49,505 nt of DNA from Candidatus Fermentibacteraceae bacterium (lineage in GTDB: Bacteria > Fermentibacterota > Fermentibacteria > Fermentibacterales > JCC-6): contig JAUVIS010000002.1 in assembly GCA_030592635.1 (NCBI GenBank), forward strand, positions 1 to 49,505, in the 5' to 3' direction. Positions 1,812-47,893 of the stretch are shown in pieces. The translations under genes were made by a program, and so were the position numbers. Under the pieces are notes generated by a model. The model did not search any database. It had not been told where the DNA came from and worked only from the letters and a program-made list of their open reading frames with translations. The stretch's first letter is position 1, and the number at the start of each line of letters is the position of its first letter.

Positions 1812-2006
1812 ATGCTCAAAAGCGAAAAGGTTATTCTTCGTGCGTTGAAAAGAGAAGATATCGAAAGAATGCACGAGTTAAATCAGGATAAAGAGATGCA
1901 TATTCTGAATGGCACATTGCAAATCAGTGACTTCTTAGGAGTTCTAAGTGAAATATATGTCACCAGTCAATGTGATTCTTTGAGAAAGAATCCTGAACAC
2001 AAATAA
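1812..2006 (+). pseudogene. Probable truncated GNAT (RimJ/RimL-like) N-terminal fragment
   Basis: MLKSEKVILRALKREDIERMHELNQD matches the usual N-terminus of RimJ/L-type acetyltransferases. The ORF stops after 64 aa, before any acetyl-CoA binding motif. It is divergent from the intact GNAT gene. Confidence 0.3.
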
Positions 2007-25020: not shown

Positions 25021-25599
25021 ATGCACAGATCGGGTAACGAGGTTGCTTACAAGATAGTTTACTACGGTCCTGGTCTTTCGGGGAAAACAACCAACCTGAG
25101 GGGCATCCGGGACATTATCGCACCGGAAAACAGGGGCAGGCTTGTAACCCTCTGCACAAGATGCGAGAGAACTGTATTCTTTGATTTTCTCCCGGTAAAT
25201 TTTGCCAGAATCGGAGATATGCGGGTTAAGCTTCATCTCTATTCTGTTCCGGGACAAGCGTATTACGCTCTGAGCCGAAGGGTGATACTTGACGGCATTG
25301 ACGGAGTGGTTTTCGTTGCCGACAGCCAGAAGGAAAGGTCTGAAGCAAACCTCAGTACCATTGATGACCTTGAACACAATTTGAAGAGTTACGGTCTTGA
25401 CATGTCAATGATTCCCATGGTTCTCCAGTTCAACAAGAGGGATCTTCCCGGAATAATGTCAACCGGTAAAATGAATACCGATCTGAACAAATTCGGCTGG
25501 CCTACTGTGGAATCAGTAGCCATTGGCGGAAGTGGTCCCGCCGAGACGCTCAAGATCATTGCCACGCAGATCGCCAAGCGCCATGCGCGCACAGGCTGA
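25021..25599 (+). CDS. mglA: MglA-type Ras-superfamily small GTPase (paralog 2)
   Basis: KIVYYGPGLSGKTTN, ERTVFFDFLP, YSVPGQAYY, IDGVVFVADSQ and NKRD are present. An RBS, GGGGGAGGG, lies directly upstream. Confidence 0.85.
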   Translation: MHRSGNEVAYKIVYYGPGLSGKTTNLRGIRDIIAPENRGRLVTLCTRCERTVFFDFLPVNFARIGDMRVKLHLYSVPGQAYYALSRRVILDGIDGVVFVADSQKERSEANLSTIDDLEHNLKSYGLDMSMIPMVLQFNKRDLPGIMSTGKMNTDLNKFGWPTVESVAIGGSGPAETLKIIATQIAKRHARTG

Positions 25600-27724
25600 T
25601 TCTAAAAATCAATTTAATATTATTGTCCTTCTGCTGCTTCTTGTAGCAGGAGGCTTTGCTTTCCGTACAGTTTTCGCCCGGTCAGTAATGCGACCTCCTT
25701 CCAGAATGCAGGGGGAAACCACTCAGGCATACCGGTATGCCCGGATGGTTTCAGACGGGGAGGGAATACCCGAGGTTGACACTCTGGTTATGCGTCCGAA
25801 CGGTATGATCACGGCAGAGAACTCTGTTTTTGAAGAGTACATTGCCGGGGGGATACACAGAGTGGTCGGCGGAGATTTTAACAGGTTTCTGTTGCTGTTC
25901 TGCCGTATATTTCCTCTGCTCGTACTGCCGGTAATTTTCTTCTGGATGCGCAATTCGGGTTTTTCAATGCCGGAGTCTTCCGCCGGCGCCGGATTGTATG
26001 CTGTCTTCCTTCCTGCTCTGCTGCGAACCAGAGGGGAGAGCCTGTATCGCGAAACTGTAGCGCTGCCTCTTATTACACTGACTCTTGCGCTTGCGGATAT
26101 GGGAATTCGAAGCGAGAGAAAAAACACTCTCAAATTCTCAATCGCAGCAGCCGTAACCTTTTTTATGGCTCTCGCGTCCTGGAAGGTTACAGGCTTTATC
26201 TCTTTCTTCATATTCACATGGCTGGCTTTCCGGAAGCCGGGCCTTCGCACAGTCCTTCCTCTGGCTGTGAGTCAACTGGCTGCCGCAACCCTTCTTACTC
26301 ACATGCGTCACGATATGGCTCTGCTTTCTCCCGGTACTATTATGGCAGTCGCGGCAGTTGCTTCCTCATTCTTTAACCACAAAGTTTTCCCATGGGCAGG
26401 GCTTATGGTTTCTCTTGCCTCAGGCGTATTTTTCAGCTCCTCCTCCAGTGGCCATGTAGCTTCCGTAATTGCGGCGAAGCTTAAATTTTTCTTCAGCCAT
26501 CCCGAGGATCCCGCGCTGCTGTCCGGCGATGCCCGTCTTTTCTGGGTAAGCGGATACACCAGTCCGTCCGTCGGGCAGATTATTCTGCTTTTCGGTGCAG
26601 CCGCTGTTATTGCCGTATGGGGATGGAAACCATTAAGAGAAAAGACTCGCGGATCAGCCATGCTTTTTCTTGCACCTCTTTCCGCCGCCGGATACCTTTT
26701 CTTTGACAGACTTCATGTGCTTCTGGCCATCGGTATTATTCCAGCGGTTATAGCTGCCCTGCGAGGCCGCAGGTGGATGCTTCCGGTTCTGCTGACGGTC
26801 TTTGGTCTTCAGTCAATGTTTGCGCCTCAACTTGCGACCCTGCTTTCATCCACGGGTCTTTCATTTGGTGATTCTTCCTCACTTCTCAAAGATTCCGAGC
26901 TTGACGATTTTGTTGACTGGGCAGAGGAAAATCCGGGAACTATGCTTTCCTTCTGGCACATTTCAGGATTGCTCTCCGCTTACGCTGAAATGCCGGTTGT
27001 CACTCACACCTTCTTTGAAAATACAGAAAACCGTGAAACCATTATTGAGTTCGCCGAAAGAATCTACGGCACAGAAGATGAAATGGTTGATTTCATGGAA
27101 GAGAAGAGAGCCATATATCTGGCTTACCAGGCTGATTTCACCTTCGACAGAACACCTCAGGGACTTCTTTACCTTGCGGCGCTCACAGAGATTCCCGACG
27201 GTTGTCTCGCGATAAGGCTTCACTACTATCCCCATTCTCTTGAAAGGCTGAAACTGATATGGCAGGGGCCATCCATCAGAGTATTCCAGCTTGATGGAGA
27301 CACAGCTGATACGCGAAGACAACTACTCTGGGAAACCCGGTACGGCTCTTTCCTGCACAACAGGGAGATGGCGGGTGCCGTGATTAACTCTCCTGTTGAA
27401 ACCGGTATTTATCTTGCCGATCAGGGAATCAGCAACAGTGATCCGCAAAAAATATCCGCTGCTCTGCTGATCTTTTCGCTGTCCCGGAACGATGTGCCGG
27501 CAGACGCCGCCGTCACTCTTCTTCAGGAGCTTCTTATGGCTCATCTTGCGGGAGAGTATTCAATTGAGTATCTGGAAGAAGACTTTGTCGCTTATCTTGA
27601 CGGCTGGGGACCGGATCCTCAGCTCCGCTTCGATCTTGTCAGACTGTTGAGAAACAATGACCTTGATCAAAGGGCGGATTTCCACATGGAGATAATTGAA
27701 AGGATGGGAAGAAACGGTTTATGA
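25583..27724 (+). CDS. Large polytopic membrane protein with C-terminal soluble domain (GT-C / STT3-like architecture, family not recognised)
   Basis: There are about 11-13 hydrophobic helices followed by a ~300-aa soluble part. The first loop, YRYARMVSDGEGIPEVD...RPNG, and the post-TM segment SFWHISG loosely recall STT3 EL1 and WWDYG, but the WWDYG Asp is not conserved. The ATG at 25583 overlaps mglA-2 by 17 nt. Confidence 0.65.
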   Translation: MRAQADSKNQFNIIVLLLLLVAGGFAFRTVFARSVMRPPSRMQGETTQAYRYARMVSDGEGIPEVDTLVMRPNGMITAENSVFEEYIAGGIHRVVGGDFNRFLLLFCRIFPLLVLPVIFFWMRNSGFSMPESSAGAGLYAVFLPALLRTRGESLYRETVALPLITLTLALADMGIRSERKNTLKFSIAAAVTFFMALASWKVTGFISFFIFTWLAFRKPGLRTVLPLAVSQLAAATLLTHMRHDMALLSPGTIMAVAAVASSFFNHKVFPWAGLMVSLASGVFFSSSSSGHVASVIAAKLKFFFSHPEDPALLSGDARLFWVSGYTSPSVGQIILLFGAAAVIAVWGWKPLREKTRGSAMLFLAPLSAAGYLFFDRLHVLLAIGIIPAVIAALRGRRWMLPVLLTVFGLQSMFAPQLATLLSSTGLSFGDSSSLLKDSELDDFVDWAEENPGTMLSFWHISGLLSAYAEMPVVTHTFFENTENRETIIEFAERIYGTEDEMVDFMEEKRAIYLAYQADFTFDRTPQGLLYLAALTEIPDGCLAIRLHYYPHSLERLKLIWQGPSIRVFQLDGDTADTRRQLLWETRYGSFLHNREMAGAVINSPVETGIYLADQGISNSDPQKISAALLIFSLSRNDVPADAAVTLLQELLMAHLAGEYSIEYLEEDFVAYLDGWGPDPQLRFDLVRLLRNNDLDQRADFHMEIIERMGRNGL

Positions 27725-28529: not shown

Positions 28530-28605
28530 GCGGGCATAACTCAGTTGGCAGAGTGTCAGCTTCCCATGCTGAATGTCGCGGGTTCGACCCCCGTTGCCCG
28601 CTCCA
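28530..28605 (+). tRNA. tRNA-Gly (anticodon CCC), CCA encoded
   Basis: Hand-folded cloverleaf: acceptor GCGGGCA/TGCCCGC, D stem ACTC/GAGT, anticodon stem TCAGC/GCTGA, loop TTCCCAT, T arm GCGGG-TTCGACC-CCCGT, then discriminator T plus CCA. Confidence 0.9.
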
Positions 28606-28621
28606 TAACTTCTGGAACGGT

Positions 28622-29221
28622 ATGATATTTCTGATTCTTTTGTTATCAGCTGACGCACCGACAAACATTCAATGTATGTGGATGTTACGGGCGGGAAGTC
28701 AAACAGCAACTATCCAGGCAGTGATGGGTTCGTCTCTGTATTCCAGAGCCTGTACGGCTTCCGCGAACGAGTTCTCCCGTGATAATCTTCTCGACGGAAT
28801 TAAAGGTGGCGACATATCCATGATCGTTCCCCTTGCGGCTCTTCTTGTCTCAGAGGGCAGGGCTGATCTGGCGGAAGTCTACTGGGAGATGGAAGGACGG
28901 GATCTGCCTGTCACCCGGAATGATCTTCTTGACGTGCTTTCGTGGTTCGGGCGATACGAACTTTATCCGATAATGGCACTCAATCCCACAGTCCCTTCTG
29001 ACATGGAAGGAACAATGCACTCAGATCAATGCGGCGCTGTTTGTGCTCTCGGATGGATGACCGTAAGGGAAGACGGTCTGTTTCACTGTGAGGAACTTGT
29101 TTCACCGGCGGATATTCAGATACTCTCAGGATTCTTCCCCGGTGTTAATTCTGAAATGAAATATATTCCATCCGGATTTCTTGACAGTATGCTCAAGACG
29201 ACAACTCGAGTTACACGATGA
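28622..29221 (+). CDS. Hypothetical protein (hydrophobic N-terminus)
   Basis: The track ORF (28553) overlaps the tRNA. The first ATG after the tRNA is at 28622 (MIFLILLLSA). There is an ATGA overlap with the downstream gene. I recognised no family. Confidence 0.45.
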   Translation: MIFLILLLSADAPTNIQCMWMLRAGSQTATIQAVMGSSLYSRACTASANEFSRDNLLDGIKGGDISMIVPLAALLVSEGRADLAEVYWEMEGRDLPVTRNDLLDVLSWFGRYELYPIMALNPTVPSDMEGTMHSDQCGAVCALGWMTVREDGLFHCEELVSPADIQILSGFFPGVNSEMKYIPSGFLDSMLKTTTRVTR

Positions 29222-29847
29222 ACCTCAACGAACCTCAGCAGAAACATCTGGAACAGTTGTCCCGTGGCATCGCAATGATTAAACGGTCTCAGGAGCAGCT
29301 CCCGATAGTGCCGGCCCTTGTATCCTGGGTTCGTATCATTCTCCTTCCCTTCTGCCTCTGGACCGGCTGGAACTCCGATTACACCGCTATGTTCTGGCTG
29401 TGCATTGTCGCCGCCTCAAGTGACTATTTCGATGGATTGATTGCCAGAAAAATGAAGAAGTCCAGTACTCCGGGGAAAACGCTGGATATTCTGGCGGACA
29501 AACTCTTCCTTTCTGTCATGCTGATATTTCTTGCAAGACTGGGGGCTGTTACCGGGCTGCTCGCCATGATTCCCGCATGGTATCACATCACTGTTGTTCT
29601 GGGGCTGCTTGTGGTGTCATGGAGTATCAAAATTCCTGTGGTTGCCATAACCACAAGCGAAAGGCTTACAATTATTCTCAGTTATGTTCTGGTGCTTACC
29701 GCCGCCGGTACTCTGGCATATCCGGACAAAAGTATTTTCTTCAAACTTACATGGGTTGCTCAAATACTCACACCGATAGCTGCCGTCTTCGGTGTAATCA
29801 GCTACTTCAGATTCTCCAGAAGACTGATACAGAAGTATATGCAATGA
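29218..29847 (+). CDS. CDP-alcohol phosphatidyltransferase family protein
   Basis: The signature D-x2-D-G-x2-A-R...G-x3-D-x3-D is present as SDYFDGLIARKMKKSSTPGKTLDILADKL. The protein is polytopic. Confidence 0.8.
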   Translation: MNLNEPQQKHLEQLSRGIAMIKRSQEQLPIVPALVSWVRIILLPFCLWTGWNSDYTAMFWLCIVAASSDYFDGLIARKMKKSSTPGKTLDILADKLFLSVMLIFLARLGAVTGLLAMIPAWYHITVVLGLLVVSWSIKIPVVAITTSERLTIILSYVLVLTAAGTLAYPDKSIFFKLTWVAQILTPIAAVFGVISYFRFSRRLIQKYMQ

Positions 29848-30515
29848 TATTAATATTTCTGATAATCCTCACTGGAATTTCTCCCGTAGAACTGGAACAG
29901 GCAGGACGGCTTGCGGAGGCCGGAGCCGCGTGGGAAGCTGAGGATGATCCGGCCGGACAGGCACGAATTATGGGCAGGCTGATTGAAGAAGCAATTTACG
30001 CAGGCGACGGCAGAAGAGCAGTTCTTCTTTCAATTGAGCTGCAAAGTCTCTGCGGAGACGGTGATCTCTATGACTTCTGGATGGCCAGAATTGCCTGGAT
30101 TTCGGGTCTCTCGGAACTCGCAATCACAAAGCTTATGCTTCTGGCTCCGGATGATCCATGGCTTTATCACCGGGCCAGGGGGCTGTCCGCTCTTTTCAGG
30201 GAAGATGGTAAAACGGCCGTTGAAGAATTGATGCTTTCCATTGCCTCTGCCTCAACAGCCAGAAAAGCTTTCTGGAGCGCAATTGATCTGTGCTCCGCAT
30301 ATTTGAATCTTGGAATGTATGAAGAAGCCCTTTATCTTTCCCGGTTGATTCGCGTTCATTATCCCGGTGATGTCCTTGGAGATGTTATGTACGGTTTGTG
30401 CCTCCAGACATCGGGGCAGTTCGGCGAATCCTCAAGAGTTCTTAACACAGTTGATTCATCCAACCCGGCTGCGGAACACATAGCCAGAAGAATAATGGAA
30501 GGATTTGAGCAGTGA
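29844..30515 (+). CDS. Hypothetical TPR-like helical protein with N-terminal hydrophobic segment
   Basis: The ATG at 29844 forms an ATGA overlap with the preceding stop. The track ORF (29577) is an out-of-frame extension through the upstream gene. Confidence 0.55.
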   Translation: MILIFLIILTGISPVELEQAGRLAEAGAAWEAEDDPAGQARIMGRLIEEAIYAGDGRRAVLLSIELQSLCGDGDLYDFWMARIAWISGLSELAITKLMLLAPDDPWLYHRARGLSALFREDGKTAVEELMLSIASASTARKAFWSAIDLCSAYLNLGMYEEALYLSRLIRVHYPGDVLGDVMYGLCLQTSGQFGESSRVLNTVDSSNPAAEHIARRIMEGFEQ

Positions 30516-31402
30516 AGTTTCTCAGGAAAATGTTTGGTAGTCGAAGAGAGGCAAAAGTGTCTTCAAACTGGAGTGATTTCAGATTTCCATCAGATATACT
30601 GAGACCTGAATCCGCCGGTGTTTTTACTTCTTCGGATATCTCGGATGCCTGGTCATCTGTTTATATGGCAAAAGCTCTTCAGGATGCCTATCCGGGTACT
30701 CCAATTCACTTTGTGGCACATCAGGATGTGTTTGAACTGGCAGGATTCCTTCCCTGGACACCGGAGATGCACATCTACTCCGGTGATCCCGGATCTCCGG
30801 ATCCCTTTCCACCGAAAGGTGTGCTCCTCTTCAGCACCTGTCCAGGCGATGATCTTCTCAGGTTTGTTGAAAAAACATCTCCGCTGGCCTGCGTCTCTTC
30901 AGTGAAACACCCGGCCGTGAATATCAGAATAAAAACAGTTTCAGATGTATTCCCCGATAACACCCATGGAATCATGAGTGTTCTCCAGTTGAAGACCGAT
31001 ATGAACTGGAAGCCAGTTGTGCCCCGTGTTCTTGCCGATAAGGCCTCGACTATCCTTTCGCCTGTTTCTCATCGAACACTGCCATACATTCTGGCCACTG
31101 AGGACGCCTCTGATATTTTTAAAAGGAAGAGAGCGGAAGTTCCTCTGAAGATTGTCCTTGTGGACGGCAACAGCACCAATATTCCCCCGGAGACCAGCGA
31201 AGGAATCAAAGCTGCACTGGTAGCAGGAGCATCAGCTGTTGCCACCACCGACAGAGATTTCTGGATTCATGCCCGGGCACTTGGAACCCCCGTGATCGGA
31301 CTTGACAGAAAGGGAGCATTCAACGGATGGGGTTCCGAACCGGCAACTGGAGATACGCAATTCCTGGAACAATGGGCATCACTTATCAGACGCGGATGGT
31401 AA
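30512..31402 (+). CDS. Divergent glycosyltransferase family 9-like (heptosyltransferase-fold) protein
   Basis: The N-terminal pattern ...AKALQDAYPGTPIHFVAHQDVFELAGFLPW... and the C-terminal LVAGASAVATTDRDFWIHARALGTPVIGL resemble GT9 proteins. The assignment is weak. Confidence 0.45.
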   Translation: MKFLRKMFGSRREAKVSSNWSDFRFPSDILRPESAGVFTSSDISDAWSSVYMAKALQDAYPGTPIHFVAHQDVFELAGFLPWTPEMHIYSGDPGSPDPFPPKGVLLFSTCPGDDLLRFVEKTSPLACVSSVKHPAVNIRIKTVSDVFPDNTHGIMSVLQLKTDMNWKPVVPRVLADKASTILSPVSHRTLPYILATEDASDIFKRKRAEVPLKIVLVDGNSTNIPPETSEGIKAALVAGASAVATTDRDFWIHARALGTPVIGLDRKGAFNGWGSEPATGDTQFLEQWASLIRRGW

Positions 31403-31408
31403 CAGATA

Positions 31409-31813
31409 ATGAAGAGAGTAATTACATACGGAACATTTGATCTCTTCCATATTGGTCATTTGAATATCCTGAAACGAGCCAGAGCTCTTGGAGACTATCT
31501 TGTAGTTGCCGTTTCAACAGATGAGTTCAACACCGGAAAACACAAACAGTGTGTTTATCCCTATGCACACCGGGCGCAGATTGTTGAATCAATACGATTT
31601 GTTGACAAGGTTATTCCGGAAACAAGCTGGAATCAGAAATTAGAAGATATTAAGAATAATTCCATTGATGTATTCGTTATCGGAGATGACTGGAAAGGCA
31701 AGTTTGACTTTTTGAAGGAATACTGTGAAGTGGTCTATCTTCCAAGAACAGAAAGTATTTCAACAACCGCGATTAAAAATACAGTGCAGAACGGCAGATC
31801 CATCTCCACATGA
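31409..31813 (+). CDS. tagD: Glycerol-3-phosphate cytidylyltransferase
   Basis: The match to Bacillus TagD is near full-length: KRVITYGTFDLFHIGHLNILKRA, VAVSTDEFN, VFVIGDDWKGKFDFLKEYCEVVYLPRTESISTT. Confidence 0.9.
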   Translation: MKRVITYGTFDLFHIGHLNILKRARALGDYLVVAVSTDEFNTGKHKQCVYPYAHRAQIVESIRFVDKVIPETSWNQKLEDIKNNSIDVFVIGDDWKGKFDFLKEYCEVVYLPRTESISTTAIKNTVQNGRSIST

Positions 31814-32847
31814 AATTACTCTTTTATGTTTCAAAACTCTATTCTATTCCCGTGATTCAACCTCTCGTGAAAGAGGCAGCGGAACAAAAAGTTGAAATCG
31901 CTCTTTTTGTCAGCTCTAAAGTAAGCAGAAAGCTTCCGGAAACCCTTTCAACAGTTGAAGCGTTTACAGAACTGAAAGACGCAATTGCCTTCAATCCGGA
32001 TTTCGTTCTGTGTCCGGGCAACTTTGTGGATTTCCGTCTGCCGGGAATAAAAGTGGAGCTTTTTCACGGAATCGGAATTGAAAAACCGTCGCACTACAAA
32101 ATCAGGCACTTCTTCGATCTCTATCTCAGTTCCGGACCGGTTGTAACCGCCCGTTTTAAGGAAATGGAAAGAAAGCGCGGATACTTCAGAACCGTTGAAA
32201 CAGGCTGGCCGAAGATTGATCACATTTTGAATTATGATATCACTGATATCAGAAAACGATTCAATCTGCCGCAGGATAAAAAGATTATCCTGTACGCTCC
32301 GACACACAGCAGCAGCATGGAATCCGCAAAGGATATTCTTCCTGCTATTGAAAAAATAATGAAATCCGATGAGATATGGTTCTGCAAGCCCCATGAGTTT
32401 ATGGACAAAGAACTTCTTCAGGAATTGCGCGGAAAACAAGTCAAACTGATAGACGACTGTGACATTACACCTTACCTTCACCTGGCTGATGTGCTGATTT
32501 CTGATACCTCTTCTGTAATCTACGAATTCATGGTTCTCGAAAAACCGGTAATCACATATCGGACGCTCAGCAGGAAAGACAAGGGAATAGACATACAATC
32601 AGCAGCAGAGTTAAGAAATGCCCTGGACAGGTCTCTAAGCTCGCCGGGAGAATTTGCGGGGCAGAGGCAGAGACACCTGCGGGAAGTAAACCCACGACTT
32701 GATGGTTCCATTTCCAGGGGGATTATTGACCTGCTCTCGTCTATAGACTCAACTCAACCGATGAGTAAGGGCAGGAAACCCTTAAACCTCTTTCGCAAGA
32801 TGCAGATTCTCTATCACAGCCGTTTCCGCAAAGGTTATCTCCGATAA
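31810..32847 (+). CDS. CDP-glycerol glycerophosphotransferase family protein (TagB/TagF-like) 1
   Basis: The motifs ILYAPTHSS, CKPHEF and VLISDTSSVIYEFMVLEKPVITY are present. There is a 4-nt overlap with tagD. Confidence 0.85.
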   Translation: MKLLFYVSKLYSIPVIQPLVKEAAEQKVEIALFVSSKVSRKLPETLSTVEAFTELKDAIAFNPDFVLCPGNFVDFRLPGIKVELFHGIGIEKPSHYKIRHFFDLYLSSGPVVTARFKEMERKRGYFRTVETGWPKIDHILNYDITDIRKRFNLPQDKKIILYAPTHSSSMESAKDILPAIEKIMKSDEIWFCKPHEFMDKELLQELRGKQVKLIDDCDITPYLHLADVLISDTSSVIYEFMVLEKPVITYRTLSRKDKGIDIQSAAELRNALDRSLSSPGEFAGQRQRHLREVNPRLDGSISRGIIDLLSSIDSTQPMSKGRKPLNLFRKMQILYHSRFRKGYLR

Positions 32848-32951
32848 TGATTTCTTGCGGAATCTGATGCAAATGATTATAGTTTTCCCGGCAATTCAGT
32901 TTCAAATATTTACAACATACATGGTCTCATTAAGTTACGCGGAGCAGTGAA

Positions 32952-33698
32952 ATGAAAGCAGTAATAATCGCGGCGGGTTGCGGCTCGCGTCTTGAGTCCC
33001 GGCACGGGGGAATGCCCAAGACTCTTCTGGAGGTCGGGAACCGGAGGGTCATTGATATTATCCTCGACGGAGTGGTAAAGTCCGGTATAAAAGATGTTGT
33101 TGTTGTTACCGGATACAAAGCAGCTCTTCTTGAGGACTACCTGAGAAACAACGCGCCCGACCCCCTCAGCATTGAGCTCTCCGATAATCCCCTCTGGAAG
33201 CTTTCCAATGGTGTTTCTGTACTCAGCGCGAAAAAAATGATCAGACCCGATGAAGAATTTGTTCTCTTAATGAGTGATCACATCTTTGAACCGGAAATGC
33301 TCAAACTTACTGTTGAAACCGCGATTGAACCTGATCAGGCGTTGCTTGCTCTGGATTTCAAGCTTGACCGCATTCCTGATCTTGATGACGGAATGAAGAT
33401 CAAATGCGCCAGAATTGAGAACAGCAGGTTTGAGATTACCGGACTTGATAAAAAGTATGAAGATTATCAGGCAATAGACTGTGGTATGTTCAAATTGAAT
33501 TACAGCTTCTTCGACATTCTGCGAAGCTCTATAGAACAGGGTAAAGATTCTCTCTCGGATGCCTGCAATTCTCTTGCGCGGAACGGGAAGATGATTGGTG
33601 TTGATATCGGTGACAGAAGATGGATTGATCTGGACACCCCTGAGATGTTTTTATGGAATGAACTGATCGGCACAATCACCGGCGAGAGCAAACAGTGA
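32952..33698 (+). CDS. NTP-transferase domain protein (LicC / IPCT-like cytidylyltransferase class, substrate unknown)
   Basis: The N-terminus is MKAVIIAAGCGSRLESRHGGMPKTLLEV. The 248-aa length and overall layout match the phospho-alcohol cytidylyltransferase class. Confidence 0.75.
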   Translation: MKAVIIAAGCGSRLESRHGGMPKTLLEVGNRRVIDIILDGVVKSGIKDVVVVTGYKAALLEDYLRNNAPDPLSIELSDNPLWKLSNGVSVLSAKKMIRPDEEFVLLMSDHIFEPEMLKLTVETAIEPDQALLALDFKLDRIPDLDDGMKIKCARIENSRFEITGLDKKYEDYQAIDCGMFKLNYSFFDILRSSIEQGKDSLSDACNSLARNGKMIGVDIGDRRWIDLDTPEMFLWNELIGTITGESKQ

Positions 33699-34759
33699 AT
33701 ATCTACTACTTCGCGAATCAGATTTATCAGTTGTCATATGCATGGCCGCTTTACAATGAGATCGGCGGTTCTTTCCTTGTAAGGAAATACAAGACTCTTC
33801 TGAAGTTCAAGAGATACCTCAGGGGAAGTGTAAAGTCCGGGAATGCCGCATCTCTTGGAACTCCGGCTGTGGAAAGAAGGAAACTCAGACATGTTTCCGA
33901 TTTGAGCGGAATCATTTTATCACAGTCCAATTCCAGAATACACAATGATCCAGCAAGACTGAAAACTGTTTTCATTGGACACGGTACCGGCGACAAGAAA
34001 TACGGGGGGAAAGCCAATACTCTCGAGAGCTATCAGTATCTTTTCATCTCCGGACCCAAACACATGGAAAAGCTCAAAGACGCCAGGCTTGATATTCCTG
34101 AAAAAAGGCTTGTGAATATTGGTAATCTCAGATTTGATGAATACTTGAACAACAAAAATGACCGTGATGCTCTGATGGACAAAATGAGAATTCCCATGAA
34201 GAACCGAACAAGAAAAACGGTTCTGTACGCCCCGACATGGAAATGGGGAAACGGGACAATAAAGAAGTATGCAAAACTTTTCATCAAAGAGATTACCAGA
34301 GAACACAATCTCATAATCAGACCTCATCATTTCGACGCTCATCGTCTTCCCGGGCTGAAGCTCTGGGCCGCCGCGAACGGAATTAAGAATGTGTATTTCT
34401 CCAATCCCAACAGGATCAAGACCAACGACACTATGCAGGACTTCCTTGTTTCGGATGTTCTTATCAGTGATACATCTTCCATACTTTATGAGTACCTTGT
34501 AACAGGGAAACCCATAGTAGTCGCCAGCACGGATTTCAGTGATCTGCACAACATGCCCGATAAAATGAATATAATGACAATCGCGGATTTCTTTGATGGT
34601 TCAAAAAGCATTCTGGATGTAGTGAACCGGAGCCTCTCTGGTGCGGAAAACAACTCACGCTACACCGAAATGCTGCACAACTGCTTCTACTTCAATGACG
34701 GAAAATCTGTAAAACGCGCAACAGAATTCGTAAAAGGAATCTCCCGGGAGCTTCAGTGA
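33695..34759 (+). CDS. CDP-glycerol glycerophosphotransferase family protein (TagB/TagF-like) 2
   Basis: The motifs VLYAPTWKWGNG, IIRPHHF and VLISDTSSILYEYLVTGKPIVV are present. Confidence 0.85.
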   Translation: MNIYYFANQIYQLSYAWPLYNEIGGSFLVRKYKTLLKFKRYLRGSVKSGNAASLGTPAVERRKLRHVSDLSGIILSQSNSRIHNDPARLKTVFIGHGTGDKKYGGKANTLESYQYLFISGPKHMEKLKDARLDIPEKRLVNIGNLRFDEYLNNKNDRDALMDKMRIPMKNRTRKTVLYAPTWKWGNGTIKKYAKLFIKEITREHNLIIRPHHFDAHRLPGLKLWAAANGIKNVYFSNPNRIKTNDTMQDFLVSDVLISDTSSILYEYLVTGKPIVVASTDFSDLHNMPDKMNIMTIADFFDGSKSILDVVNRSLSGAENNSRYTEMLHNCFYFNDGKSVKRATEFVKGISRELQ

Positions 34760-35847
34760 AGAAAATACTGTTCGATCTGAAAAAAGAGTACTATTTCAAC
34801 TCCCTGCATCCTCTTTACGCCGCCATGTCTCAAGACCCCGAGTACGACCTGTGGATAAGGGCGGGCAAGGATCAGCACCGCTTCCTCGGGCTGTTTCTAA
34901 TTTCAAACAAGTCCAGGATCGAAGATGATCTCAGAGGAAAAGGCTTCCAGGTAACAGATAGAACCAGAGGATTCGATGCTGTGATCTGCGGAGATGCTTT
35001 AAAGAATCCGGAAAAATACGATGATGTTCCCAGGTTTCATCTGGATCACGGAGTGGGAATAAAGACTTTAAGAATAAGAAACATAGTCAGGCAGAAGAAT
35101 ATCCGGTATCATGTTTTCCTTGAAGGTCAGTACTGGTACGACTATATAAAAAGCATTGGTTGCGGGGACAGCGCGGATTTTCATGTTACCGGATTGCCCA
35201 AGCTTGATCCATTCTTCCGGCCCGGGCATTACAACAACACTCTGCTTAAAGAGAAACTCGGACTGGACCCCTCAAAGAAAACTGTTCTGTTTGCTCCTTC
35301 ATATAAACCAAGCTGTATTGAATACATCGGCGACAGGGTCGTGGAACTTCTCCCCGACTGCAACCTGATAATAAAACTTCATCCGTATTCCTGGGGAGGC
35401 AAGTATGCCCCGCATTCTCAGCACAGGCTGTATCAGGAACTCGCGGAAAAACACAGAGAATTATACCTTGTGCCCCGTGAAGAATACGATGTTTATCCTT
35501 ATCTCAGCCTTGCGGATACCATGATAAGCGATACATCAAGTGTTCTGAATGAATTTCTTGCTCTGGGCAGACACGGAATTATCTACGAGCTGCCCTGTTC
35601 ATCTCTGAAACACTCCGATGGAATGCCTGTACTCTCCATCGACCCGGCTGAATGGCTGGCAGGGGCATTCCCCCATATATCCAGCCCGGATCAGCTTAAA
35701 AACGCCGTTAACCGGGCTCTTTCTCCCACAGACGCAATGAAAAACAAGTTGTCTGAATACAGAGAATACTTTTTTACGGGACTTGACGGCAGGGCTTCAT
35801 CCAGAGTCAAAGAAGTCATCGACTCTGTTCTGAAAACAAAGGGGTAA
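34756..35847 (+). CDS. CDP-glycerol glycerophosphotransferase family protein (TagB/TagF-like) 3
   Basis: The motifs VLFAPSYKPS, IIKLHPY and TMISDTSSVLNEFLALGRHGIIYE are present. Confidence 0.85.
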   Translation: MKKILFDLKKEYYFNSLHPLYAAMSQDPEYDLWIRAGKDQHRFLGLFLISNKSRIEDDLRGKGFQVTDRTRGFDAVICGDALKNPEKYDDVPRFHLDHGVGIKTLRIRNIVRQKNIRYHVFLEGQYWYDYIKSIGCGDSADFHVTGLPKLDPFFRPGHYNNTLLKEKLGLDPSKKTVLFAPSYKPSCIEYIGDRVVELLPDCNLIIKLHPYSWGGKYAPHSQHRLYQELAEKHRELYLVPREEYDVYPYLSLADTMISDTSSVLNEFLALGRHGIIYELPCSSLKHSDGMPVLSIDPAEWLAGAFPHISSPDQLKNAVNRALSPTDAMKNKLSEYREYFFTGLDGRASSRVKEVIDSVLKTKG

Positions 35848-35855
35848 ATTTCTAT

Positions 35856-36995
35856 ATGTCAGGTAATTACAAGATAGCATACTGGATTAGAACTGACATA
35901 CAGCATTTCGCCCATATCCGCCCCGTCTACGATAATCTCGGAGGTGTAATACTCACAAAAAATCCGGTGATTTACAACTATTTGAATGAAAATTATCCAT
36001 ATTTGCGCGAGGATCTCCTTCTGGTTAAGAATTCCACTGAAGCAAAGAAAGTACTGAACAGGATGGACATCAAACTTGTTGTGTATACCGGTTTTCAGAT
36101 GATTTTCTGGGGATATTCGGTACAGGTGTTCCACGGGGCATCCGACAAGAGCTATCTTCTTCACAACAGACGGATTCTCCTGTATGATCTGCTTCTTCTG
36201 CCCGGGAAGAAGCACATGGAGAAGATCGAAAGCACATACAAGCTTAAGCACCCTGAGCGTTTCAGGATGGTGGGTTACCCCAAGTTTGACAGGCTTGTTT
36301 CAAACACTCTTGCCCGCAGCCCACTTTTCAGCAACGGGAAGTCCACAATTCTCTATGCTCCCACATGGATATCTGAGGATTCGGGAACGAGGTTAAAGTT
36401 TACCAGCCACGGTGAAAGTTCGTTACCTCTGTGGGGAAAGAAGCTCATACGCGCAATCTCTCCTGAATGGAATCTGATTATCAAATACCACTCCAGAATA
36501 AACAAAAACCGTACAGAGATTTACAACGATATTGATCAACTCATAAGTGAACTTGGCGCTGAAGACAGTGTAAAAGTGGTCTGGGATTCAGATATTACAC
36601 AGTACATGAATCAGGCGGATCTGATGATATCTGATATTTCAGCAGTCTGTTATGAATGGTTCCATACCGGAAGGCCAATCGTTTTCGCCAATCCAGCCCC
36701 CCTGCATTACAAGCCGTCTTCAGATAAGCTGTCCAATACTTACGCTTGGCAGGCAGGCGATGTAATCAACAGGGAAGAAGATATTGTACCGATCATTCAG
36801 AAAAATCTGACCTGCGATAATTACAGGGACATCAGGAACAAACTTTTGAACCACTCATTCTACAAACCTGACGGTCACGCGACTGAAAGGCAGAGTGCCG
36901 AGATAGTGAAGTTCTACGATAAAGTAAAAAACAGAAGCAGGTTCAGGATGATCTGTCACAACATTTCAGTGTTTGTCAGAGATGCTCTTTCCTGA
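35856..36995 (+). CDS. CDP-glycerol glycerophosphotransferase family protein (TagB/TagF-like) 4
   Basis: The motifs ILYAPTWISEDSG, IIKYHSR and LMISDISAVCYEWFHTGRPIVFA are present. Confidence 0.85.
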   Translation: MSGNYKIAYWIRTDIQHFAHIRPVYDNLGGVILTKNPVIYNYLNENYPYLREDLLLVKNSTEAKKVLNRMDIKLVVYTGFQMIFWGYSVQVFHGASDKSYLLHNRRILLYDLLLLPGKKHMEKIESTYKLKHPERFRMVGYPKFDRLVSNTLARSPLFSNGKSTILYAPTWISEDSGTRLKFTSHGESSLPLWGKKLIRAISPEWNLIIKYHSRINKNRTEIYNDIDQLISELGAEDSVKVVWDSDITQYMNQADLMISDISAVCYEWFHTGRPIVFANPAPLHYKPSSDKLSNTYAWQAGDVINREEDIVPIIQKNLTCDNYRDIRNKLLNHSFYKPDGHATERQSAEIVKFYDKVKNRSRFRMICHNISVFVRDALS

Positions 36996-37909
36996 GGTTT
37001 CCTGCGCCAGCGGTTGTGGAACCATACCCACTGCTCGGGAGCATTCAGTATCCACCTGCTGATTCTTCCGTTGAGAAGTGTCAGGATTTCAGGTATTGAA
37101 TCCTCTTCTGTGAAAAAGACAGGCTCGTCAATTTCAAGGAGATAAGTTGAATCCTTCTGCCGGGTAATGTGAACAGTGACTATCGGCGCATCAAGTTTCG
37201 TTGAAAGCACCGCAGGAGCAACCGGTGTTCGTGCGAGGTGACCCAGAAAGTTTGCGAATTCACTCTGAACACCCTTTGTATCCTGATCTATCAGCATTCC
37301 CAGTGTGTTGTTTTTACGGAGCAGACGAAGTATCGGAGCAACTCCCGCATCTCTGTCGATGGTTTGTATGCCGGGTTTCCGTCTCAGTTTATCAAGAACA
37401 TCGGATGCTCCCTGCTGTGACAGAGTTCTTCCAATAACGCCGATGTCAAAACCCAGCAGTTTTACGGCCCTTGGAAGAAGTTCCCATGGTCCATAGTGAG
37501 CAGTAACAGCGATTACACCCTTTCCGTAAGAAAGGGCCTTTTTCATATTGTCTGATCCATCTACCTTCACTATTTTATTGAATGTGTTATCACTGCGGTA
37601 TGACAGGTAGAAAAAATCAAAGAATCCGGCAAGAATACCGGTGTATATTTCCGCAACTGTCACATGAATATTGTTGTCTGCCATTATGCCCTGCTGATGT
37701 TTTCTGATAATCCTGTTTGACGGCAGCGGAAGAATCGAAAGAAGCCATCCCAGTATTTCCGCATAAAATCGGGAAACCGGTCTGGGTGTGACGGCTGCCG
37801 AGAATATCACAAGTTTCACTGCCGGTGCAGTGAGGGCGTGACGGAAAGTCTTGAATGGTATTTTCTTCATATTGGCAGGAGAATACACAGTTTGCAGGCG
37901 ATCTGTCAA
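36956..37909 (-). CDS. Lysophospholipid / lipid A late acyltransferase family protein (LpxL/HtrB-like)
   Basis: The family block is GKGVIAVTAHYGPWELL...LGMLIDQD...FLGHLARTPVAPAVLS. An alternative start is the ATG at 37870 (MKKIPF). The 3' end overlaps the convergent tagF-like 4 gene by 40 nt. Confidence 0.8.
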   Translation of the reverse strand: MTDRLQTVYSPANMKKIPFKTFRHALTAPAVKLVIFSAAVTPRPVSRFYAEILGWLLSILPLPSNRIIRKHQQGIMADNNIHVTVAEIYTGILAGFFDFFYLSYRSDNTFNKIVKVDGSDNMKKALSYGKGVIAVTAHYGPWELLPRAVKLLGFDIGVIGRTLSQQGASDVLDKLRRKPGIQTIDRDAGVAPILRLLRKNNTLGMLIDQDTKGVQSEFANFLGHLARTPVAPAVLSTKLDAPIVTVHITRQKDSTYLLEIDEPVFFTEEDSIPEILTLLNGRISRWILNAPEQWVWFHNRWRRKPQERASLTNTEML

Positions 37910-42979: not shown

Positions 42980-43008
42980 TTGACAAATGAAACGACTGTG
43001 CTTAGATA
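42980..43008 (+). promoter_or_regulatory. Candidate sigma70-type promoter for the 43029 gene pair
   Basis: TTGACA (42980-42985), a 17-nt spacer, then TAGATA (43003-43008). It is followed by RBS AAGGAG (43015-43020) and the ATG at 43029. Confidence 0.3.
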
Positions 43009-43028
43009 AAACACAAGGAGACTGGAAA

Positions 43029-43487
43029 ATGACATTACTGCTGATGATCATTGCGCTGTACGGCCCTTCTCTGGAACTTCCCGGGGAAGAGGTCGGGTAT
43101 TCCTTTCAACTTGAGGACAGCTCTGCGGTATCCTTTCTTACCGGCCCGCACAACGAATACATCATCTTTCGTTTCGGTTTCCCTGACAGTATCTACCTCG
43201 AATTTCCGGAAGAAGCCTCATCTGACTCCTGGGGTTGTTTCCTGATCGACAGCTACAGCAGACACGGGGGAGAACAGAACGACGGGATGTCTGTCAATAC
43301 AATATCATTCGCTGTAAATGATTCTCATATTGAAGTCTACGATGACTACTACTCTGTTGGGCCGGAGTACACTACGGGAATTAGAATAACAGAGGAAAAC
43401 AGTGTAATCTTTCAGAAACAGGGTGTATTCGCTTCAAGAACCGGAAGTCTTGTTCTGTTCCTGAACATCTTTCAAAGTCTGGAGTAA
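43029..43487 (+). CDS. Hypothetical exported protein
   Basis: The ATG at 43029 lies 8 nt after AAGGAG. The N-terminus is hydrophobic (MTLLLMIIALYGPS). I recognised no family. Confidence 0.5.
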   Translation: MTLLLMIIALYGPSLELPGEEVGYSFQLEDSSAVSFLTGPHNEYIIFRFGFPDSIYLEFPEEASSDSWGCFLIDSYSRHGGEQNDGMSVNTISFAVNDSHIEVYDDYYSVGPEYTTGIRITEENSVIFQKQGVFASRTGSLVLFLNIFQSLE

Positions 43488-43492
43488 CCGGC

Positions 43493-43924
43493 ATGAATAA
43501 AGTTGTTGTCCATACTGTCCGGGGTGAGGTTCTCAAGGGATACACAGCAGATTTTTCGCGAAAAAAACCTTCCTTTCTGCTTTCCAGTGAAGACGGAGCC
43601 ATCAGAACTAATCAGAACATCGAGATAAAGAATCTGAAAGCCATTTTCTTTGTAAAAACATTTGAAGGAGATTTCCTGCACAAGACCATGCATTACTTCA
43701 AGGGCGATACTTCCTACGGGAAAAAAGTACTCGTGACCTTCAAGGATGGAGAAAAGTTCTACGGCAGGGTAGAGGCAATGCATTCAGACCCGGAGCACAC
43801 CGGTTTCTTTATCTTTCCTCTTGATCCGAGTTCGAATACGATAAGGGCGTTTGTGGTCAACAGTTATGTAGACACTATTCAGACTATGGATTTAGAAGCG
43901 GATTCAACACTTTCGGATGATTAA
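43493..43924 (+). CDS. Hypothetical small beta-rich protein with apparent internal duplication
   Basis: 143-aa ORF, 5 nt after the preceding gene. The two halves share a V-x-V...GE...G...F-hydrophobic pattern. Confidence 0.55.
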   Translation: MNKVVVHTVRGEVLKGYTADFSRKKPSFLLSSEDGAIRTNQNIEIKNLKAIFFVKTFEGDFLHKTMHYFKGDTSYGKKVLVTFKDGEKFYGRVEAMHSDPEHTGFFIFPLDPSSNTIRAFVVNSYVDTIQTMDLEADSTLSDD

Positions 43925-43981
43925 CCGGCTCACCGTTCAACCCGGCTGCGCCGGAAGTGTAACTTAGCTATCCTTAACCAC

Positions 43982-44009
43982 TTGACCTTACGCAAATGTA
44001 TCGTATAAT
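43982..44009 (+). promoter_or_regulatory. Near-consensus sigma70-type promoter
   Basis: TTGACC (43982-43987), a 16-nt spacer, then TATAAT (44004-44009), in the 355-bp gap upstream of the small ORF at 44061 and comEC. Confidence 0.5.
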
Positions 44010-46335: not shown

Positions 46336-47358
46336 ATGCAGAATACAATGGAATTTCTTATGCAGCTTCTCCGGACAAGAAGTGTCACAGGAAACACGGA
46401 GCTTGCTGCTGAAATTGTCAGAACAAAACTGGATTCTCTCGGTCTTGATGTCAGAGTGACCAACAAAGGCTCTGTGATCGCGACAATGGAGGGAACCACA
46501 GATGATTCCGCGGTAATCAGTGCTCATATTGACACGCTGGGAGCTGTTGTGTCCCGGATCAAATCAGATGGCACCCTGACATATCAGTGCGTGGGCGGCT
46601 TTACCGCAAACAGTATTGAAGGCGAGTACTGCCAGGTGGAAACATTCGCCGGCAGACTGATTCCGGGAACAATTCTTTTTTCTAAAACCTCGGTACATGC
46701 CCACGGCAGAGAAAAATGCAGCGTAAAAAGAACCCATGCTGAAATGTACATCAGGCTTGATGATGCGGCAGACTCTTCTGACGCTGTGAAAGAGCTGGGC
46801 ATCAGCGTGGGAAACTACATACACTTTGACCCCCGGATCCGGCACTTAGGCAGCGGGTATATCAAAAGCAGGCACATCGATGACAAGGCCGGAGTGGCTG
46901 TTCTGGTTGCCATAGCCGAAGGCCTTGTGAAACAGAAGGTAAAACCACAGAGGAATATCCACTTTCTTTTTACAGTTCACGAAGAGGTTGGTCATGGTGC
47001 CGCCGGATGGCTCCCCGAGAATGTTTCAGACTTTCTAGCTGTGGATATGGGGGTTTGCGGAGAGGATCAGTCTTCAGATGAGAAAAAGGTAACTGTATGC
47101 GCTGCAGACAGCTCTGGGCCATACAACTATGAACTGACGAAGCACCTTATCAATCTTGCTGAGATGAACAACATTCCTTACGCAGTGGATACATTTCCGT
47201 TTTATGGCTCTGATGCAGGAGCAGCTATGAGGATGGGGCTCGATGCAAGACATGCGCTGGTGGGCCCGGGAGTAGACTCCTCACACGCCATTGAGAGAAC
47301 GCACGAGGAAGGAATAAAGGCCACAATTGATCTTGTGACAATTTTCGCTATGGAGTAA
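46336..47358 (+). CDS. M42 family metallopeptidase (glutamyl aminopeptidase / FrvX-CelM-like)
   Basis: ISAHIDTLGAVV, SRHIDDKAGVAVL, FTVHEEVGHGAA and the C-terminal SSHAIERTH match the M42 metal-ligand blocks. Confidence 0.85.
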   Translation: MQNTMEFLMQLLRTRSVTGNTELAAEIVRTKLDSLGLDVRVTNKGSVIATMEGTTDDSAVISAHIDTLGAVVSRIKSDGTLTYQCVGGFTANSIEGEYCQVETFAGRLIPGTILFSKTSVHAHGREKCSVKRTHAEMYIRLDDAADSSDAVKELGISVGNYIHFDPRIRHLGSGYIKSRHIDDKAGVAVLVAIAEGLVKQKVKPQRNIHFLFTVHEEVGHGAAGWLPENVSDFLAVDMGVCGEDQSSDEKKVTVCAADSSGPYNYELTKHLINLAEMNNIPYAVDTFPFYGSDAGAAMRMGLDARHALVGPGVDSSHAIERTHEEGIKATIDLVTIFAME

Positions 47359-47893
47359 GAATGATGTCAAGGGCGGAGACCAGCGAACCGGTAACATGAT
47401 CCGGCATAACCAGGTTCTCCGCCTTTATGATTTCCAGTTGATCTCTTCCTCTGCCGGACAGAACAAGAATGGTTGTGAGTCCGGATCTTCTGCCGAGTTC
47501 CATATCGCTGTCAGCGTCTCCAACCATCCAGCCACCGGCGGGAAGCCCCAGGTCAGAAACAGCTTGTTTTACCATGCCGGTTTCAGGCTTCCTGCAGGTG
47601 CATCCGTCCTGTGGATGGTGAGGGCAGAAGAGAACATGAACCGAATCAACTCCAGCGGCTTTCAAGGCGCTGCGCATCACGCGGTGAATCTGCTCGACTG
47701 CTTCTGCCGTGTAGTAACCTCTTGCGATTCCTGACTGGTTGGTTACCACAACAAGGGGATGTCCTGCTCTGTGAAGTTCAGCCATTGCTGAAATGGCTCC
47801 GGGAATCGGCATCCATTCGGCGGGGGTTTTCACATAGTCCGCTCTGTTGGTGTTGATTACTCCATCCCGGTCGAGAAAGACAGGCAGCTTCAT
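47348..47893 (-). CDS. gmhB: D-glycero-D-manno-heptose 1,7-bisphosphate phosphatase (HAD-IIIA)
   Basis: FLDRDGVIN, VVTNQSGIARGYY, the zinc-loop CPHHPQDGCTCRKP and MVGDADSDMELG are present. Confidence 0.85.
   Translation of the reverse strand: MKLPVFLDRDGVINTNRADYVKTPAEWMPIPGAISAMAELHRAGHPLVVVTNQSGIARGYYTAEAVEQIHRVMRSALKAAGVDSVHVLFCPHHPQDGCTCRKPETGMVKQAVSDLGLPAGGWMVGDADSDMELGRRSGLTTILVLSGRGRDQLEIIKAENLVMPDHVTGSLVSALDIILTP

Follow-up and report, generated by a model that had tools for sequence, protein, structure and literature searches.

The stretch of DNA analysed here, referred to below as the window, comprises 49,505 nucleotides of contig JAUVIS010000002.1 from a Candidatus Fermentibacteraceae bacterium. 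Ten genes on its forward strand, at 28553-36995, make up one compact operon in which neighbouring genes overlap by 4 bp or are separated by gaps of at most 9 bp, with a single 104-bp exception (Table 1). The operon encodes TagD, four TagF-family phosphotransferases (P1 to P4) and a second nucleotidyltransferase (NTP), and a first-pass annotation had read it as a teichoic-acid-like locus directing synthesis of a CDP-glycerol polymer. TagF-type enzymes are the textbook enzymes of wall teichoic acid synthesis in Gram-positive bacteria, and their role in Gram-negative capsules has been recognised only recently. A comparison of about 190 related loci suggests that the operon may instead decorate the core of lipopolysaccharide (LPS) with glycerol-phosphate and inositol-phosphate.

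Gene content of the operon

TagD exceeds the cut-off of the TIGR01518 equivalog model (184.8 bits against 165.4) and aligns without gaps to Bacillus subtilis TagD (1COZ), 83 of 126 residues being identical (66%), in keeping with the very close resemblance to the Bacillus enzyme noted at first pass. All four TagF-family proteins lie above the Pfam gathering cut-off of 22.1 bits for PF04464, with scores of 79.5 (P1), 71.9 (P2), 47.9 (P3) and 75.8 (P4). The two sequence blocks ascribed to them can be read in the translations, the first as ILYAPT in P1 and P4, VLYAPT in P2 and VLFAPS in P3, and the second as LISDTSS in P1 and P2, MISDTSS in P3 and MISDISA in P4. Each is a single-domain protein about as large as TagB or TarF and lacks the additional domains found in known polymerases. 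P1 alone among the paralogs was modelled with AlphaFold2 (AF2; pLDDT 86.7), and the best Foldseek matches of the model are to TagF (3L7J/K/M; E = 8e-15, TM 0.65-0.68), followed by Cps3D and TarL. The family profiles and the P1 model support CDP-glycerol synthesis together with TagF-type phosphotransferases; the family assignment itself is already known, the NCBI name being 'CDP-glycerol glycerophosphotransferase family protein'.

Table 1. Coordinates of the operon genes and of two LPS-related genes downstream.
Feature	Position	Strand	Remarks
222-aa open reading frame (ORF), first gene of the operon; Fermentibacterota-specific protein of unknown function	28553..29221	+	4-bp overlap with CDP-alcohol phosphotransferase gene
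CDP-alcohol phosphotransferase, 209-aa membrane protein	29218..29847	+	PF01066, E = 1.7e-17
223-aa protein, hydrophobic N-terminus, C-terminal third weakly TPR-like	29844..30515	+	Start inferred from orthologs
GT9-fold (heptosyltransferase-like) protein, divergent, 296 aa	30512..31402	+	Gene-caller start 30530 (290 aa)
TagD, glycerol-3-phosphate cytidylyltransferase (product CDP-glycerol)	31409..31813	+	TIGR01518
P1, TagF-fold phosphotransferase, 345 aa	31810..32847	+	PF04464
Intergenic gap P1/NTP (104 bp)	32848..32951		Variable insertion point in other Fermentibacterota
NTP, second nucleotidyltransferase, 248 aa; probable CTP:inositol-1-phosphate cytidylyltransferase	32952..33698	+	PF00483
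P2, TagF-family phosphotransferase, 354 aa	33695..34759	+	PF04464; 4-bp overlap with NTP
P3, TagF-family phosphotransferase, 363 aa	34756..35847	+	PF04464, E = 1.2e-12
P4, TagF-family phosphotransferase, 379 aa	35856..36995	+	PF04464, E = 4e-21; profile positions 82-361 aligned
LpxL-like late lipid A acyltransferase	36956..37909	-	PF03279, E = 3.5e-38; NCBIfam matches are lauroyl acyltransferase models
GmhB, heptose-1,7-bisphosphate phosphatase (context only)	47348..47893	-	NF006506, 179.3 bits against cut-off 178

The presence of the catalytic histidines of TagF, on which the earlier annotation had staked its case, could be followed for the second of the pair: P1 H195 aligns with TagF H584, and this histidine is invariant within each of the four ortholog families, being H211 in P2, H209 in P3 and H212 in P4. 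An HG motif is likewise invariant in each ortholog family (P1 H86-G87, P2 H96-G97, P3 H98-G99, P4 H93-G94), and its histidine matches TagF H444 by motif and profile position only. When P1- and P3-family profiles were compared with PDB sequences, just the C-terminal Rossmann half aligned and the N-terminal histidine was not placed. P1 also carries a cationic C-terminal tail, KGRKPLNLFRKMQILYHSRFRKGYLR, at residues ~318-345, which is kept across phyla and is probably a membrane-association helix; an electropositive C-terminal helix has been predicted in Cps7A (PMC11666461).

The four paralogs share 25-30% pairwise identity. P1 orthologs were found in 80 species at 47-82% identity (47-59% outside the phylum), and orthologs in other phyla retain 40-53% identity to P2, 63-67% to P3 and 44-54% to P4; the phyla concerned include Cloacimonadota, Delongbacteria, Calditrichota, Neomarinimicrobiota and Krumholzibacteriia. 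P3 is the paralog best kept across phyla, its orthologs lying mostly directly after P1, and P4 has a patchy distribution outside Fermentibacterota, where all four types nevertheless occur together in some genomes (L019, L026, L031 and L060; L numbers denote the loci compared). Their low mutual identity, together with the orthologs of each in other phyla, indicates that P1-P4 are ancient paralogs, and on the same grounds recent tandem duplication or lineage-specific expansion is ruled out.

The second phospho-alcohol cytidylyltransferase-like gene and the CDP-alcohol phosphatidyltransferase listed by the first-pass annotation are both present, and the genes it named in the operon lie at the places it had given. 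The latter retains an intact DxxDGxxAR...G...D...D motif, its best PDB match being Staphylococcus aureus PgsA (7DRJ) and its best NCBIfam match pgsA at 48.9 bits, under the cut-off of 109; by sequence it would be a divergent PgsA or else a transferase with CDP-inositol or CDP-glycerol as donor. The label 'GT9-like' given to the 296-aa protein holds at the level of the modelled fold only. All 40 homologs of this protein are from Fermentibacterota, no match was found in Pfam (PF01075 included) or NCBIfam, its family profile returned nothing from PDB sequences, and hhalign gave E = 0.17 for the GT9 alignment and E = 0.56 for 'u290', a weakly GT9-like family of other phyla. Its AF2 model (pLDDT 80.8, pTM 0.82, with a less confident C-terminal domain) has WaaF (1PSW), a Veillonella GT9 protein (3TOV) and WaaC as its top nine Foldseek matches (E = 4e-7 to 2e-4, TM 0.5-0.6). 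Since the model matches GT9 proteins first, the order GT9-fold, TagD, P1 in the window would mirror the GT9, TagD, P1 order of other phyla described below. For the 223-aa protein, described earlier as resembling tetratricopeptide repeat (TPR) proteins, we found weak signals only, all below threshold (Pfam E = 0.004; PDB E about 0.14). The 222-aa ORF has no match in Pfam or NCBIfam and has orthologs solely in syntenic Fermentibacterota loci; these are ~199 aa long, and its true start is probably later than called. At the other end of the operon, P4 and the LpxL-like gene converge, their 3' ends overlapping by 40 bp at 36956-36995. A promoter and terminator scan yielded no more sites than shuffled sequence, and an exact-sequence look-up found P1 in no contig and TagD in one 2.3-kb Logan contig only.

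Neighbourhoods of the orthologs and the second nucleotidyltransferase

Across phyla of the Fibrobacterota-Chlorobiota-Bacteroidota (FCB) group, the module is anchored by P1. ORFs around P1 were clustered in 80 species representatives and the recurrent families annotated. The most frequent are TagD and LicD (44 loci each), nucleotidyltransferase (42), an MsbA-like ABC half-transporter (35), GT9 (32), DUF6165 (26), CDP-alcohol phosphotransferase (21), LpxL-like (17) and GT4 (10), with sulfotransferase (9), EptA-like phosphoethanolamine transferase (7) and inositol-phosphate synthase (MIPS; 4) being rarer. A typical order runs MsbA-like, [GT4, u290, DUF6165, GT9], TagD, P1, P3, LicD, NTP, followed by P2, P4, and an EptA-like or sulfotransferase gene. 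In the 59 loci from outside Fermentibacterota, P1 is immediately preceded by TagD (18), the MsbA-like ABC gene (17) or GT9 (16), and TagD by GT9 (8) or LpxL (5); at least one of MsbA-like, GT9, LpxL and EptA-like genes is present in 51 of the 59. The recurrent transporter is of the fused MsbA type, its best model being MsbA_lipidA at 441 bits. GT9 neighbours are closest to heptosyltransferase III/RfaQ, and the EptA-like genes resemble phosphoethanolamine-lipid A transferases. TagO/WecA, TagGH, KpsMT, Wzx and Wzy are all missing from the annotated recurrent or Pfam-annotated neighbours in these related loci.

One 5.3-kb contig assigned to 'Candidatus Uhrbacteria' (L046, LBWG01000046.1), a bin of the candidate phyla radiation (CPR), holds GT9, TagD, P1, LicD, NTP and EptA-like genes; two loci labelled 'uncultured Bacteroidia' (L079, L085) are listed beside it. 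LPS synthesis is not expected of CPR bacteria, and L046 is therefore probably mis-binned.

The window shares this LPS context, with the LpxL-like gene adjacent to the operon, the GT9-fold gene inside it and GmhB 10 kb away. GmhB, taken as context only, indicates heptose synthesis by this organism for the core of its LPS. The closest relatives of every gene are metagenome-assembled genomes (MAGs) labelled Candidatus Sabulitectum or Fermentibacteraceae, of the phylum Fermentibacterota (= Hyd24-12), and published Hyd24-12 genomes were judged to encode an archetypical diderm envelope with LPS (PMC5030696). On the strength of those genomes and of the LpxL-like and GmhB genes in the window, the host is diderm, as the first-pass annotation had supposed from outer-membrane genes. 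Of the genes it cited, the acyltransferase and GmhB were recovered; the T9SS (type IX secretion system) C-terminal domain was not reproduced, with no match in the subset of window ORFs scanned.

NTP is the component for which a donor other than CDP-glycerol comes into question. Its best PDB matches, over the full length, are to the inositol-1-phosphate cytidylyltransferase (IPCT) of Archaeoglobus fulgidus (2XME and 4MND), and its best NCBIfam match is the N-terminal IPCT half of the IPCT/DIPPS model NF041135, which describes a bifunctional enzyme (88.7 bits, under the cut-off of 580). The NTP family is small, with 299 matches at E of at most 1e-10. Four diverse orthologs (46-54% identity; L088-L091) have MIPS directly upstream and one PF04464 gene adjoining, in LPS-type contexts: L088 reads GmhA, HldE, PMT_2, GT4, MIPS, NTP, PF04464, WaaY/GT9, GT4, GT4, GT9, GT9, and L090, from a complete Fidelibacterota genome, reads LpxL, Sua5, MsbA-like, MIPS, NTP and a P2-type gene (49.6% identity). 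The three contigs checked for TagD (L088, L089, L090) have none within 7 kb. A metagenome scan added 21 loci with NTP orthologs of at least 38% identity. MIPS immediately precedes NTP in 16 of the 17 whose upstream sequence is long enough, a P2-type gene (45-51% identity) immediately follows it in 14 of the 17 whose downstream sequence suffices, and an MsbA-like gene is nearby in five.

These relatives (L092-L112) are from marine or aquatic samples, and nearly all are flanked by MIPS and a TagF-like gene. Relatives of 34-40% identity, mostly from soil (L113-L171), have neither, a few having a CDP-alcohol phosphotransferase gene ~2 kb away; they are a different subfamily and were left out.

It is the resemblance of NTP to IPCTs and the linkage of its orthologs to MIPS and P2-type genes, combined with the 4-bp overlap of NTP and P2, that lead us to propose that NTP is probably a CTP:inositol-1-phosphate cytidylyltransferase making CDP-inositol, and that P2 would be an inositol-phosphate transferase. 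Gene linkage thus suggests CDP-glycerol as the donor for P1 and CDP-inositol as that for P2. The broader proposition, that P2-type enzymes at large are CDP-inositol-dependent inositol-phosphotransferases acting on lipid A-core, is one we put forward tentatively, as an attractive possibility that still falls somewhat short of probable.

A proposed role in LPS core assembly

With moderate confidence, we favour the view that the locus is the Fermentibacterota version of a widespread FCB-group LPS inner-core operon, whose products would add glycerol-phosphate and inositol-phosphate sequentially onto lipid A-core before export by MsbA. Lipid A-core is the likely acceptor because in related phyla the same genes directly follow an MsbA-like flippase and GT9 heptosyltransferases and have LpxL- and EptA-like genes close by. 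TagD would provide CDP-glycerol and NTP a second CDP-alcohol, most likely CDP-myo-inositol. The four TagF-fold enzymes would then work on the cytoplasmic side of the inner membrane, every one of them transferring one polyol-phosphate, in phosphodiester linkage, to lipid A-core or to the preceding unit. P1, coupled to TagD, would start by placing glycerol-phosphate on an inner-core sugar such as Kdo (3-deoxy-D-manno-oct-2-ulosonic acid) or heptose, the GT9-fold enzyme possibly supplying the core sugar acceptor; P2, coupled to the cytidylyltransferase, would add inositol-phosphate, and P3 and P4 would extend or branch the structure. Finally, MsbA would flip the finished molecule and the Lpt pathway export it. 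What comparative genomics shows here is the identity of the genes, their folds where modelled, conserved histidines, synteny and linkage; the acceptor, the donor of each paralog and the choice of single over repeated addition are inferred, as is whatever part the 222-aa protein, the TPR-like protein and the CDP-alcohol phosphotransferase would play. The first-pass annotation had remarked that no exporter or primer is visible in the locus. Indeed, no TagO/TagA primer enzyme and no TagGH exporter was found there, but the MsbA-like and GT9 context in related phyla supersedes the puzzle: with lipid A-core as acceptor and export by MsbA and Lpt, neither a polyprenol primer nor a TagGH/KpsMT exporter is needed. 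Two published cases offer parallels. Cps7A, a PF04464 enzyme, adds glycerol-3-phosphate to Kdo and a LicD-family enzyme extends it (PMC11666461), and in Bacteroides fragilis, a member of the FCB group, Kdo bears two phosphodiester-linked substituents (bioRxiv 10.1101/2024.04.13.589361).

The system proposed here combines features of several known ones. With the wall teichoic acid enzymes of Bacillus and Staphylococcus it shares its TagD, its PF04464 enzymes, the TagF GT-B fold of P1 and a histidine that aligns in P1 with H584, the HG motif lying at about the profile position of H444 and possibly corresponding to it, and its sequential paralogs recall the succession TagB, TarF, TarL. It differs in its diderm host, its LPS-gene neighbours, the N-terminal halves that cannot be aligned to TagF/TarL, the second donor, probably CDP-inositol, which the TagF family is not known to use, and the lack of TagO, TagA and TagGH in the locus or among the annotated neighbours of related loci. 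Its MsbA-like, GT9, LpxL-like, EptA-like, LicD and GmhB genes resemble those of LPS core operons, and its logic would be that of LicD, which places phosphocholine on Haemophilus influenzae lipooligosaccharide, and of the phosphoethanolamine transferases EptA/EptB: lipid A-core is decorated, in the cytoplasm or periplasm, with phosphodiester-linked small alcohols. Unlike in those systems, the transferases here are of the TagF fold and would use CDP-polyol donors. We know of no prior assignment of TagF-fold CDP-polyol enzymes to LPS core assembly. In the searchable literature, PF04464 enzymes in a conserved FCB-group LPS-core operon, the module of MIPS, an IPCT-like enzyme and a PF04464 enzyme, and the predicted glycerol- and inositol-phosphate on LPS cores all appear to be new.

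The group-2 capsule enzymes Cps7A, Cps3D/Cps7D and Bcs3 are likewise PF04464 proteins of Gram-negative bacteria (PMC11666461). Cps7A has the kind of acceptor proposed here, Kdo, as well as a LicD partner, as P1 has in loci outside Fermentibacterota, and its predicted cationic C-terminal helix recalls the P1 tail; Cps3D is the best PDB sequence match. In contrast to the capsule polymerases, P1-P4 are single-domain proteins with no fused TPR or glycosyltransferase domain and are conserved in the core genome rather than serotype-specific. The locus has no kps export or poly-Kdo linker genes, no kps family occurs among the annotated neighbours of any locus examined, and the locus matches no characterised group-2 capsule cluster, a check that the earlier annotation had called for. 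As to the inositol branch, the operon recalls the IPCT/DIPPS of hyperthermophiles and the putative CDP-inositol lipid route of Bacteroidota (PMC9246714): NTP is closest to the A. fulgidus IPCT, its orthologs follow inositol-phosphate synthase, and the operon includes a CDP-alcohol phosphotransferase. Unlike in either, NTP is not fused to DIPPS and is coupled to a PF04464 gene, and the window locus has no MIPS or HAD gene.

A true teichoic-acid- or capsule-like poly(polyol phosphate) heteropolymer, in which one paralog primes and the others polymerise on a Kdo-glycolipid or LPS anchor, with an exporter encoded elsewhere, seems to us unlikely, although it is the product that the first-pass annotation had suggested. 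PF04464 does include the polymerases TagF and TarL, and the catalytic core alone is enough for the fold. Furthermore, in Actinobacillus pleuropneumoniae a PF04464 primer acting on Kdo and a LicD-family polymerase make poly(glycerol-3-phosphate), with a TPR domain needed for elongation (PMC11666461); P1 is paired with LicD in 44 loci outside Fermentibacterota, and the window has its stand-alone, weakly TPR-like protein. Set against this, no KpsMT, KpsE/D, KpsS/C, TagGH or TagO/TagA was seen among the annotated neighbours in ~190 loci, all four paralogs are of TagB/TarF size and lack the polymerases' extra domains, and P1 and P3 are kept at 47-67% identity across phyla in core-genome positions, unlike serotype-variable capsule genes. 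Of the heteropolymer claim, the second CDP-alcohol donor stands, but nothing shows a long polymer, and the data are matched at least equally well by an oligo-phosphodiester decoration of defined structure, put together step by step.

If the product were a membrane lipid or free glycolipid, a Kennedy-type route through NTP and the CDP-alcohol phosphotransferase would yield an inositol or glycerol phospholipid, with the TagF-like enzymes lengthening the head group of a glycerophospho-glycolipid. For Bacteroidota, MIPS, an NTP transferase and a CDP-alcohol phosphatidyltransferase have been put forward as a putative route to inositol lipids (PMC9246714). Genes for CDP-alcohol phosphotransferases are repeatedly present, in 11 Fermentibacterota loci and 10 others, and in two metagenome loci (L098, L111) NTP stands beside such a gene with no TagF-like gene. 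We nonetheless consider this improbable, if conceivable for those two genes: the window places them five genes apart, whereas NTP and P2 share 4 bp, a PF04464 gene comes after MIPS-NTP in 14 loci against a CDP-alcohol phosphotransferase in 2, and the GT9, LpxL, EptA-like, HldE and GmhA neighbours are LPS-specific. Glycerol-phosphate is present in some O-antigens and S-layer glycans, and the operon might decorate another glycoconjugate of this sort, for example the O-glycans of proteins, the glycan of an S-layer or an O-antigen built elsewhere and linked to undecaprenol. A syntenic 980-aa TMEM260-like GT-C protein encoded 6 kb upstream, and two GT4 genes with a sugar nucleotidyltransferase at 11-14 kb, would fit such a role. 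Housekeeping genes (HslVU, DapF) separate the TMEM260-like gene from the locus, however, and Wzx, Wzy, WecA and oligosaccharyltransferase do not appear among the annotated recurrent neighbour families, making this the faintest of the prospects considered and highly improbable.

Assembly of a decorated LPS core remains the account we prefer, and several points weigh against it. On the enzymes themselves, the equivalence of the HG histidine to TagF H444 is set by motif and approximate Pfam profile position only, and the N-terminal (acceptor) halves gave no alignment with the solved TagF/TarL/Cps3D sequences. As to context, the MsbA-like, GT9 and LpxL-like matches all fall under NCBIfam equivalog cut-offs, and the window contains no MsbA, canonical GT9 or inositol-phosphate synthase gene, so that these would have to be encoded elsewhere; its syntenic relatives also show no MIPS in the visible stretch. 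The pairing of NTP with P2 is not uniform, since MIPS-NTP is partnered by a P3-like gene in L089 and L091 and by a P1-like one in L088, and some P2-type genes adjoin LicD without MIPS. Chemically, glycerol was once reported in the Porphyromonas gingivalis core and was not reproduced in 2026 (PMC13086638), and a search of the open literature gave no account of an LPS core containing inositol-phosphate.

If core decoration is correct, TagF-type enzymes would be standard in LPS core assembly of many uncultured FCB-group phyla, and the envelope types would overlap more than has been assumed. Unusually anionic, polyol-phosphate-rich LPS cores would be predicted in abundant anaerobic-digester and marine bacteria, the recurrent 'teichoic acid' annotations of diderm MAGs would be explained, and the operon would offer a compact enzyme set for defined phosphodiester-linked glycoconjugates. 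The TagF family would also gain a new donor, CDP-inositol. Should the more tentative assignment of P2-type enzymes hold, LPS cores bearing myo-inositol and glycerol in phosphodiester linkage would be expected in several uncultured phyla, among them Fermentibacterota, Cloacimonadota and Fidelibacterota/Marinimicrobia; a new donor specificity would follow for the family, as would a new class of constituent for LPS cores.

Inheritance, base composition and the rest of the window

About 15 Fermentibacterota MAGs have a common gene order around the operon: TMEM260-like, HslV, HslU, small-GTPase-like, 733-aa protein, DapF, the locus, LpxL (-), PolA and sulfatase. The sole variable point of these syntenic loci is the gap between P1 and NTP. 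Because the whole gene order is common to them and varies only there, the locus is, by this comparison, ancestral in Fermentibacterota and no island. In L015, L018, L020-L022 and L029 the gap before NTP or P3 is 1.6-6.6 kb and usually holds GT9 heptosyltransferase-like and DUF6165 genes on the opposite strand. L016 and L020-L021 lack NTP-P2, and their gap additionally contains a further, distant TagF-like gene together with one for an ATP-grasp protein. ATP-grasp (RimK-like) genes occur in TagF-like clusters of several phyla (L016:12425-13444, L021:6689-7687, L077:7997-8998, L081:4241-5290 and relatives), and their products might attach an amino acid to the polyol-phosphate decoration, in loose analogy with the D-alanylation of teichoic acids.

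The impression of A+T-richness from tagD onward, formed by eye at first pass, was borne out by calculation, the TagD-P4 genes having a G+C content of 0.39-0.47 against 0.48-0.52 for the flanking genes and a level of about 0.49-0.51 before the drop. The drop sits in codon positions 1 and 2 and not in position 3, and therefore reflects proteins rich in Lys, Asn, Ile, Tyr and Phe; G+C at third positions (GC3) is 0.48-0.52 in P1-P4 and NTP, as in the flanks, and TagD alone is low (0.378). A dip of 3-8 points was found in all ten syntenic Fermentibacterota loci measured, whose genomic G+C spans 0.40-0.53. Recent horizontal transfer as a cause of the A+T-richness is ruled out by the flank-like GC3, the dip in all syntenic loci measured and the housekeeping flanks. 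Two other low-G+C stretches in the window lie at 1001-2000 (0.354), which spans a GNAT acetyltransferase gene at 1151-1819 (-), and at 43001-44000 (0.451).

Several further genes of the window deserve mention. The TMEM260-like gene at 20197-23139 (+), whose product is GT-C and protein O-mannosyltransferase-like, hints at protein or glycan mannosylation in Fermentibacterota. A 192-aa protein with a weak Arf/small-GTPase match is encoded at 25021-25599 (+) and is 90-97% identical across Fermentibacterota MAGs, compared with 60-85% for its neighbours; the gene after it, here at 25523-27724 (+), always encodes a 713-733-aa protein that matches no family, and a second small-GTPase-like ORF lies at 15104-15706. 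Some 15 kb upstream of the operon, at 11027-14086 (+), an RmlA-long-like sugar-1-phosphate nucleotidyltransferase gene and the two GT4 genes adjoin those for HPr kinase and enzyme I of the phosphotransferase system, and may belong to another glycan pathway.

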